From Chrysomallon squamiferum (Eukaryota > Animalia > Mollusca), in contig CM022665.1 in assembly GCA_012295275.1 (NCBI GenBank), forward strand, positions 48,980,001-49,044,000: 64,000 bases of DNA. Reading direction: 5' to 3'. The stretch's first letter is position 1, and every line of letters starts with the position of its first letter. Shown here piece by piece: positions 3,741 through 4,366 of this stretch. Position numbers and translations under genes: made by a program. The notes under the pieces were generated by a model. It saw only the letters and a program-made list of their open reading frames with translations. It searched no databases and had not been told where the DNA came from.

Positions 3741-3777
3741 TATAAGGTAGACGCTTCTGTTTCTTCCACATTCAGTT
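3741..3777 (+). promoter_or_regulatory. TATA box (TATAAG, 3741) and cap/Inr element (CATTCAGTT, 3769-3777) for the 100-aa ORF
   Basis: TATA lies ~30 nt upstream of CATTCA/TCAGTT; the ATG is at 3812. Repeated in each unit. Confidence 0.65.
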
Positions 3778-3811
3778 TTGATTTGAATTTACAGAAAGTC
3801 ATTAGAAAACT

Positions 3812-4114
3812 ATGGAGAAATTCAGTCTGTACGCTGCACTCTACGAAACAGAGAATCGCTTCAGACGAGCCTGCGAGCAGATTGTCATGCTGAACACCAA
3901 GCTGGAAGAGCTCCAGCTCCGATACGACAAAGCCAGAGTGGACAACCACAAATCGTTCCGATACAACTTGCGTCTGAAAATGGCCACTGTTGAGGGTGTG
4001 CGTAATTCCTACTACGAATACGCCTGCTGGAAAGCAGAAACGGTGGCCGAACTGACAACGGAATTGTCAATCGTTTCGCCCGAATCGCAGTCCGATGACG
4101 AATACATGCAGTAA
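3812..4114 (+). CDS. Intronless 100-aa uncharacterised helical/coiled-coil protein with acidic C-terminus (copy 1)
   Basis: GC-richer than its flanks, TATA/Inr upstream, heptad pattern (IVMLNTKLEELQLRYDKA), identical protein in three copies, histone-type stem-loop downstream. Confidence 0.8.
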   Translation: MEKFSLYAALYETENRFRRACEQIVMLNTKLEELQLRYDKARVDNHKSFRYNLRLKMATVEGVRNSYYEYACWKAETVAELTTELSIVSPESQSDDEYMQ

Positions 4115-4152
4115 AGTGAGCCGAAAGCACATAATTATGCCTTTGAAACGGC

Positions 4153-4189
4153 GGCTCTTTTAAGAGCCATGCAAATCACTTGAAAGTGA
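4153..4189 (+). terminator. Histone-type 3' stem-loop (GGCTCT-TTTA-AGAGCC) with HDE-like GAAAGTG
   Basis: 6-bp stem and 4-nt loop matching the metazoan histone consensus, 38 nt after the stop; followed by ATGCA and a purine tract at 4182-4188. Confidence 0.8.
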
Positions 4190-4366
4190 TTGTACACAAT
4201 TGCAATATTTTCTTTGATTCGATATTATTTCATTAATTTTTAGATAATACATGTTTATGCACCCCACTTTCAAGTCAACACCTAAGCTTGGAAATGAATC
4301 AATAAATTATAAATGATTCCACTAACTGACCCACTGACTGAATACGGAAATGAAAAATAATAGTCA

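Follow-up and report, generated by a model that had tools for sequence, protein, structure and literature searches.

Can the machinery that gives replication-dependent histone mRNAs their tail-less 3' ends also serve an mRNA that encodes no histone? This question is raised by an intronless gene in the stretch of 64,000 nucleotides analysed here (the window), which encodes a protein of 100 amino acids and is followed by a stem-loop of the histone type. In the known pathway, SLBP sits on the hairpin, U7 base-pairs to the purine-rich element downstream, and the cut is made by CPSF73 5 nt beyond the stem, according to a 2026 survey (10.64898/2026.10.14.759114). The first-pass annotation of the window had read the gene as a non-histone gene built for this route. 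The elements it relied on, namely the TATA box, the CATTCA motif, the open reading frame of 100 codons, the stem-loop 38 nt behind the stop codon, the ATGCA, the GAAAGTG tract, and the AATAAA, are all present in the sequence (Table 1). In our best reading, which we consider probable, the gene belongs to a family of non-histone mRNAs that would be processed by SLBP and U7 and carry no poly(A) tail.

Table 1. Features of the gene, its signals and the surrounding tandem array (positions in the window).
Feature	Position	Strand	Basis
TATA box TATAAG	3741-3746	+	sequence
Initiator-like CATTCA (28 nt from start of TATA box), predicted transcription start	3769-3774	+	sequence; start inferred
Intronless ORF, 100 aa	3812-4114	+	uninterrupted 100 codons
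Histone-type stem-loop GGCTCT-TTTA-AGAGCC, 6-bp stem, 4-nt loop, 38 nt after stop	4153-4168	+	sequence, Rfam, covariation, weight matrix
ATGCA; predicted cleavage after 4173, 5 nt past stem	4169-4173	+	predicted from the histone rule (10.64898/2026.10.14.759114)
Purine-rich histone downstream element GAAAGTG, predicted U7 pairing site	4182-4188	+	starts 14 nt after stem
AATAAA, possible back-up poly(A) signal	4301-4306	+	sequence
TGGCA / TGACA ... TGTCA elements upstream of TATA, family-wide motif	3654-3727	+	motif comparison
Upstream module of gene (promoter and 5' leader), head to head with SRP RNA gene	3613-3811	+	similarity to L001 starts here; equivalent of contig break 5882
Tandem array, ~3.5 units of ~2.27 kb (5S rRNA, SRP RNA, gene)	2320-10334	.	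units 95-98% identical
5S rRNA gene, unit 1, damaged or error-rich	2822-2939	+	Rfam RF00001, 66 bits
Intact 5S rRNA copies	5095-5213, 7370-7488, 9637-9755	+	RF00001
SRP (7SL) RNA gene, unit 1	3306-3605	-	Rfam RF00017
Further SRP RNA copies	5578-5874, 7853-8150, truncated from 10138	-	RF00017, full copies 243-250 bits
Copy 2: ORF 6081-6383, stem-loop 6422-6437, downstream element from 6451	6081-6457	+	protein identical to copy 1
Copy 3: ORF 8357-8659, stem-loop 8698-8713, downstream element from 8727	8357-8733	+	one synonymous change

The gene sits in a tandem repeat unit of ~2.27 kb, in the order 5S rRNA gene (+), SRP RNA gene (-), protein gene (+), the latter two being oriented head to head. 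An N gap (2120-2319) forms the left border of the array, which has probably been collapsed in the assembly since its start abuts this gap. At the right border (10334), a LINE-like fragment interrupts the fourth SRP gene. The 16-mer of the stem-loop occurs three times on the plus strand of the window (4153, 6422, and 8698); in the shuffled window, even with as many as 2 mismatches allowed, it is matched 0.01 times on average. The three stem-loops are indeed identical, as the first-pass annotation had pointed out, but they lend it no independent support: the copies are units of a 2.27-kb repeat, which also contains the 5S and SRP genes, so that they amount to one observation rather than three. 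For the same reason, the agreement of the three ORFs, which differ by a single synonymous base, says nothing on selection. A motif scan detected no histone gene in the 64-kb window, and no U7-like gene was found in it.

Among homologues, a scan of public metagenome contigs confirmed 101 relatives; the best 80 of these yielded 76 loci (numbered L001 onward) with 82 family genes, of which 15 with less than 200 nt of 3' flank were set aside and 67 were counted. The first-pass annotation had proposed to ask whether homologues keep the stem-loop, and most of them do: a histone-type stem-loop follows the stop codon in 49 of the 67 genes with at least 200 nt of flank, as found with a search pattern that was composed after the first hits had been seen and that demanded 5 of 6 pairs, so that the share of paired sites is overstated. 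The stem-loop lies within 70 nt of the stop codon in 44 genes and at about 160-175 nt in 5; 18 have none. Counted by clusters at 90% identity, it is present in 32 of 42. The same pattern was matched in 55 of 13,400 shuffled flanks (0.4%) and in none of 73 upstream windows. In a second test, anchored on the 5' arm and loop alone, 5-6 pairs were formed by 45 of 48 sites behind family genes versus 13 of 56 sites elsewhere in the loci, H3 hairpins included, and 0 of 23 in the window. The distance from stop to stem is 13-63 nt in 45 of 50 listed homologues and 162-173 nt in the other 5; about 25-60 nt is given for replication-dependent histone genes (10.64898/2026.10.14.759114).

Covariation was examined in a gapless alignment of 50 ends, in which the percentage of paired positions is inflated because the rows were picked for pairing and are mutually related. 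Two-sided changes affect four of the six stem pairs: pair 1 alternates between G-C and A-U, and pairs 3, 4, and 5 alternate between C-G and U-A. There are 39 two-sided change cells in the stem, a value reached in none of 500 shuffles, and sliding the partner abolishes the signal. The G2-C15 pair is invariant among the aligned family ends; of 45, 43 have U at the first loop position, while the second is freely variable. The stem-loop of the window has the G2-C15 pair, U at loop positions 1 and 3, and a closing U-A pair. The G-C pair 2 and loop U3 are named as diagnostic of the histone stem-loop in the survey cited above (10.64898/2026.10.14.759114).

An array held out from these analyses (L078-L082) carries the stem-loop 31 nt behind the stop codon of its family gene. 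It was encountered in a scan of prokaryote genomes, as a 15-kb contig (CBDHDT010000127.1) composed of a 2.14-kb unit of U1 snRNA, family gene, and 5S rRNA. Since this contig, the sole one in GTDB with the family, carries U1 snRNA, it is evidently animal DNA mis-binned in a bacterial bin, and an occurrence of the family in bacteria was rejected.

A hairpin could also arise by chance, or be captured once from a histone gene and then be copied by tandem repetition, without having a function. The interdependence of the three window copies and their sub-threshold Rfam score would fit such an origin. The hairpin with its covariation, however, reaches homologues down to about 40% protein identity and occurs across the quick tree of the family. 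The homologue counts, the anchored pairing test, the covariation, and the held-out array refute this explanation, to which we assign practically no probability.

As to the Rfam score, the Histone3 model (RF00032) recommended for scoring by the first-pass annotation does match copies 1 and 2 (24.4 bits, E 0.0013 and 26.6 bits, E 0.0002), but both remain below the gathering score of 34. This cut-off is a weak test for these animals because three real H3 ends (in L037, L052, and L053) all fail it too; with all 76 loci scanned, five family genes pass it outright. A weight matrix was built from 45 homologous 3' ends, with the window and its closest relative, L001, excluded. Applied to the 64-kb window, it ranked the three sites at the top with 24.6-27.1 bits, the runner-up having 5.1.

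The sequence behind the stem is conserved as well. The family consensus at the first five positions is A-C/T-A-C-A (ATGCA in the window copy). In 46 of 49 homologous ends, the purine tract has its start at +12 to +16 from the stem, with 89-100% purine at positions +14 to +18, and a purine tract likewise lies behind the stem-loop of the real H3 genes in L052 and L053. Cleavage that depends on U7 is favoured because hairpin, spacing, and downstream tract are conserved jointly; a hairpin serving stability alone needs no such set. The central proposal of the first-pass annotation, a non-histone mRNA of SLBP/U7 type, is thus backed by the stem-loops of homologues, the compensatory changes in them, a purine tract at fixed distance, and the held-out array.

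Two further structures were observed in these 3' ends. A second inverted repeat (4174-4193, +) encloses the downstream element of the window gene, so that this tract is predicted to lie inside a second hairpin; L001 and L002 have this repeat too, and a single change disrupts it in copy 2. For mouse histone pre-mRNAs, probing placed the downstream element in a hairpin that SLBP opens, according to PMC1635294. In L047 (1194-1239) and L059 (1377-1414), two tandem stem-loops of the histone type are located behind one family gene.

The first-pass annotation had cautioned that the 5' flank of the stem is less A-rich than expected, and this caveat is real for the lineage of the window. The stem is preceded by GGC in the window and L001 and by AAC or AAT in 42 of 49 homologous ends; the GGC flank scores -5.8 bits in the weight matrix. 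Flanking bases reportedly matter for the binding of SLBP. The weakened flank would be expected if the family used the histone route but the copies in the window species had drifted, so that cleavage and polyadenylation at the AATAAA at 4301 would predominate, with the stem-loop reduced to a secondary 3' UTR signal. An AATAAA is also present in L001, at +122/+133, and in differentiated tissue, poly(A) tails are found on some replication-dependent histone mRNAs, according to PMC5100578. Set against this, the stem-loop is identical in all 16 positions between the window and L001, and the downstream tract is conserved too, though synonymous sites differ by 57% (dS about 1). Such conservation at this distance argues for continuing selection.

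An apparent loss of the stem-loop in a related group also favours such drift. Genes with a stem-loop are spread throughout the quick tree, on which this label needs 6 changes (the tree is unrooted and based on few columns). Twelve genes lacking it form a group (support 84) within a well-supported clade that has stem-loop-bearing sisters. As 18 of 67 homologues have none, members of the family can do without a stem-loop and the protein does not require it. An AATAAA within 200 nt was found behind 12 of 19 stem-loop-less genes (3.7 expected) versus 7 of 51 stem-loop-bearing ones (9.8 expected), i.e. it is at chance level behind the latter, which speaks against drift toward polyadenylation. With one gene per 90% cluster, the contrast is 5 of 10 versus 7 of 34 (p = 0.11). 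In its tendency to AATAAA, the stem-loop-less branch resembles the replication-independent, polyadenylated histone variants; it differs in that its genes also look intronless and that the split is deduced from DNA and concerns mostly one clade.

Two short motifs distinguish the flanks of these genes, again mostly in one clade. TGTANATA, which we take to be Pumilio-like, occurs in 6 of 19 stem-loop-less 3' flanks (L042, L052, L058, L069, and others) versus none of 51 stem-loop-bearing ones, and TATTTAT in 7 of 19 versus 3 of 51. Being commoner behind stem-loop-less genes, they hint that these genes may make short-lived poly(A) mRNAs. In three of the 76 short loci, the family gene adjoins an H3 gene. 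In these (L037, L052, and L053), a family gene with no visible stem-loop lies 1.1-1.4 kb downstream of a stem-loop-bearing H3 gene, the flank in L052 being only 77 nt long.

Five public runs contain the stretch, all as assembled contigs, and three of them are RNA runs from one study. The RNA-run contigs cover not just the ORF but equally the spacers and the sequence preceding the TATA box. Since these parts are included, these contigs are explained by DNA carry-over, and contig depth cannot rank genes. Two low-depth contigs of RNA run X1 (6404-6500 and 6404-6495) cross the predicted cut of copy 2 at 6442 and may represent DNA or precursor. Contigs that span the cut would also be produced by the drifted copies considered above; taking all of this evidence together, we regard drift of the window copies as unlikely and retain processing by SLBP and U7 as the preferred reading.

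The protein belongs to a large family. The first search yielded 50 relatives among 52 candidates. A profile search, counted in clusters at 50% identity, returned 1,074 at an E-value threshold of 0.001 and 655 at 1e-10. The number of sequence variants in several of the 90% clusters is 35-135, which fits an organization in tandem arrays. The taxonomic range is given by few named members, most being unnamed; those named are all hypothetical proteins in the bivalves Mya, Mytilus, Mizuhopecten, Dreissena, Pinctada, and Ostrea and in the gastropods Patella and Nucella, and the annelids Capitella and Lamellibrachia are represented too. Neither the family, its 3' end, nor the repeat unit was found described in open-access text; the family of molluscs and annelids has no Pfam entry and is probably undescribed. 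The ORF is continuous in genomic sequence and aligns end to end with its homologues, as a single exon.

Between the window and L001, dN/dS is 0.11 over 97 codons. For 354 homologue pairs with measurable dS, the median is 0.39 and the maximum 0.70, values that are biased upward as saturated pairs were dropped. By these substitution rates, the gene is under purifying selection. The possibility that the ORF is a transposon fragment, raised in the first-pass annotation, is ruled out by the low dN/dS together with the lack of any Pfam family in it. Judged by its conservation and copy number, the gene is a real, selected, multicopy protein-coding gene of a large mollusc and annelid family.

Several candidate assignments were discarded. 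The source label 'mitochondrial fission protein ELM1' on two members (P0047 and P0343) was rejected, as P0047 has no such Pfam match. Among 146 representatives, Pfam was matched only by one long model, which contains a SWIM finger in its N-terminal, unrelated portion; other matches, in members with repeated units, were rejected as weak scores summed over repeats. In two Mya arenaria gene models (P0261 and P0262; MAR_017187 and MAR_017188), the family domain recurs about nine and five times; annotation software has probably joined single-exon genes of a tandem array by splicing. A viral origin was rejected, as none of 50 candidates from viral contigs is a relative; one match of the stem-loop pattern was seen in viral contigs, with no family ORF among the ORFs listed there.

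The AlphaFold2 model (pLDDT 90) is an antiparallel helical hairpin with helices at residues 2-43 and 47-88, followed by an acidic disordered tail, which agrees with the helical, coiled-coil look and acidic end described in the first-pass annotation. The middle of the protein is basic and its overall net charge is -3. The annotation had also recognised neither a histone fold nor a basic tail in the protein. An extremely divergent histone or a sperm chromatin protein would leave the histone-only rule intact, and it would suit the histone-like gene layout, the relatives that adjoin H3, and the charge of the core: of 197 proteins, 97% are net basic over residues 10-81 (85% have a net acidic tail). 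Two long helices, however, are not the three-helix histone fold. Pfam gave no match for the window protein, and neither Histone nor linker-histone families were matched at E up to 10, where a neighbouring H3, used as control, matched PF00125 at 8e-49. Profile searches of PDB sequences gave no match below E 0.04 (the best was the coiled coil of BAP31, E 0.04), and the net charge is negative. A divergent histone is thereby nearly refuted and, in our estimate, highly improbable.

In the predicted structure, the protein resembles antiparallel coiled-coil hairpins such as the ESCRT-III/PspA core, prefoldin, and SMC arms, all with two long antiparallel helices. The best-fitting chains align with Z 10-12 and rmsd 1.2-2 A over 79-92 residues (VIA-align). 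Identities are 5-18%, the Foldseek E-values against PDB are 0.3 or worse, and none of the matches stands out from unrelated rows; the arrangement is a common one and gives no assignment. Foldseek searches against PDB and viral structures returned generic coiled-coil hairpins only, and the ESM Atlas returned only an unnamed, mostly molluscan cluster; neither provided an assignment. Residues C21, Q23, R37, Y38, A41, R50, Y51, R54, E61, G62, and Y70 (also M1) are conserved in at least 90% of 112 diverse members. In the model, Y51, L55, A58, G62, and N65 share one face of a helix that points away from the hairpin core and may constitute a conserved binding surface.

The surroundings of family genes vary. 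They occur in tandem arrays with 5S rRNA, SRP RNA, U1, or histone H3 genes. Contigs from public runs diverge from the unit of the window at 5095 (5S start) and at 5882 (just upstream of the SRP gene of unit 2), which suggests that other arrangements of the 5S, SRP, and gene modules may exist in this or a close species. L001 matches the window from about the 5882-type border onward and has no SRP gene. The unit is comparable to other linked multigene units in that ~2-kb, near-identical tandem repeats join 5S rRNA with other highly expressed multicopy genes, which is also the case in L078-L082. A razor-shell study is said to have found linkage of 5S and U1. Linkage of 5S rDNA to histone genes is known from Mytilus and Artemia (PMC13525598), and a repeat of Hydractinia joins histone, 5S, U1, U2, and tRNA genes (PMC5011920). 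In contrast to these units, the partners here are an SRP RNA gene and a gene for a non-histone protein. The 5S-linkage text of the former source, a 2026 review of histone-gene organization, mentions no such non-histone gene, and no description of a 5S-SRP-protein-gene unit was found in the open-access literature.

Varying partners (5S and SRP in the window, 5S in L024 and L033, U1 and 5S in L078-L082, H3 in L037, L052, and L053), sharp module borders at 5095 and 5882, up to 135 variants per 90% cluster, and a LINE upstream of the gene in L026 are also what a selfish passenger of housekeeping arrays might leave behind, i.e. a mobile or driving gene that mimics histone signals, uses unequal crossing-over to spread through 5S, SRP, U1, and histone repeats, and makes a protein that serves the element itself. 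The gene is unlike a LINE, DNA transposon, or Helitron in that no reverse transcriptase, transposase, or Rep-helicase family of Pfam was matched in the ORF or 196 relatives (51 + 146 members for transposase and reverse transcriptase). Helitrons end in CTRR about 11 nt after a hairpin. No conserved CTRR appears in the column profile of the family ends, and the similarity to L001 continues past that place. The family spans bivalves, gastropods, and annelids and has no relative among the 50 viral-contig candidates, and the histone genes of Hydractinia likewise share arrays with 5S, U1, and U2 (PMC5011920). We therefore hold a selfish origin to be rather improbable; it concerns the purpose of the gene and is compatible with processing by SLBP and U7.

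The promoter has features of its own. Of 39 family representatives, 33 have a TATA-like box no more than 160 nt from the ATG. TGACA/TGTCA elements, presumably resembling a TALE-homeodomain site, occur in the 100 nt before the TATA box in 31 of 33 family promoters versus 161 of 581 background windows, the latter being other windows and not other promoters. The motif is absent from the sole H3 promoter compared; a histone-like timing thus receives no support from the promoter.

With replication-dependent histone genes of Metazoa, the gene shares the lack of introns, a TATA promoter, short UTRs, a stem-loop of 6 bp and 4 nt located 38 nt after the stop, a CA five nt past the stem, and a purine tract about 14 nt downstream, as well as many near-identical tandem copies and the linkage to 5S rRNA or snRNA genes. 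It differs from them in the TGACA/TGTCA promoter elements, in the stem-loop-less state of about a quarter of its relatives, in the 5' flank of the window copies, in the separation of these copies from histone genes, and above all in its product, a predicted helical hairpin with an acidic tail that matches neither core nor linker histones. The gene probably works like a replication-dependent histone gene but is none, because the defining product is missing.

Under the preferred reading of SLBP/U7 processing, RNA polymerase II would start near 3770, SLBP would bind the hairpin at 4153-4168, U7 would pair with the purine tract at 4182-4188, and the cut by CPSF73 would fall 5 nt past the stem, behind the CA that ends at 4173. 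The product would be a tail-less mRNA of ~400 nt, presumably made in a burst and quickly cleared. High copy number combined with a histone-type 3' end suggests that the protein is needed in bulk at a set time. It might be a nuclear protein made alongside histones in fast-dividing cells, with the conserved Arg/Tyr face of helix 2 gripping nucleic acid or a partner and the acidic tail acting like that of histone chaperones, but we consider this doubtful.

What is new here is a probable new substrate class for known machinery and an apparently undescribed protein family. The 2026 survey of the pathway covered only sequence downstream of core histone genes, and the term 'non-histone' does not occur in its main text (10.64898/2026.10.14.759114). 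A more far-reaching and speculative, though conceivable, interpretation is that molluscs and annelids possess a second ancient class of SLBP/U7 mRNAs, with hundreds of hairpin-protein variants, histone-like arrays, a TGACA/TGTCA promoter code of its own, and a poly(A) 'variant' branch, whose product would be an abundant, replication-coupled component of chromatin. If true, this class has been overlooked because it is lost or garbled in poly(A) RNA-seq and in annotation pipelines. A conserved non-histone family with such 3' signals would break the rule that the tail-less route serves histones alone. The finding also draws attention to a protein family of high copy number that Pfam does not cover and for which some public gene models are wrong.

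The window contains several other elements. LINE-type retroelement fragments flank the 5S/SRP array on both sides (213-2049, 10335-10832, 34150-36632, and 51680-52033); those scanned gave RVT_1, endonuclease, and zf-RVT matches. In each unit, a ~480-nt spacer precedes the 5S gene (4610-5090, +, and equivalents); it contains a TATA-like box at about 4760 and, at about 4955, a T-rich stretch that resembles an Sm site, and an Rfam search with E up to 10 gave no match to it. Five related, single-exon-looking ORFs of ~140-200 aa are located on the minus strand (14508-15131, 18092-18655, 21615-22151, 30732-31205, and 43871-44302). The first of them has no match in Pfam; their pattern is, we assume, like that of beta-sandwich proteins of the actinoporin/aegerolysin type. 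Finally, a tandem array of 17 tRNA genes occupies 52808-63365 (+), with a spacing of about 650 bp and a higher-order period of ~1.3 kb; 14 of these genes were called tRNA-Gly(TCC), and 3 are damaged.
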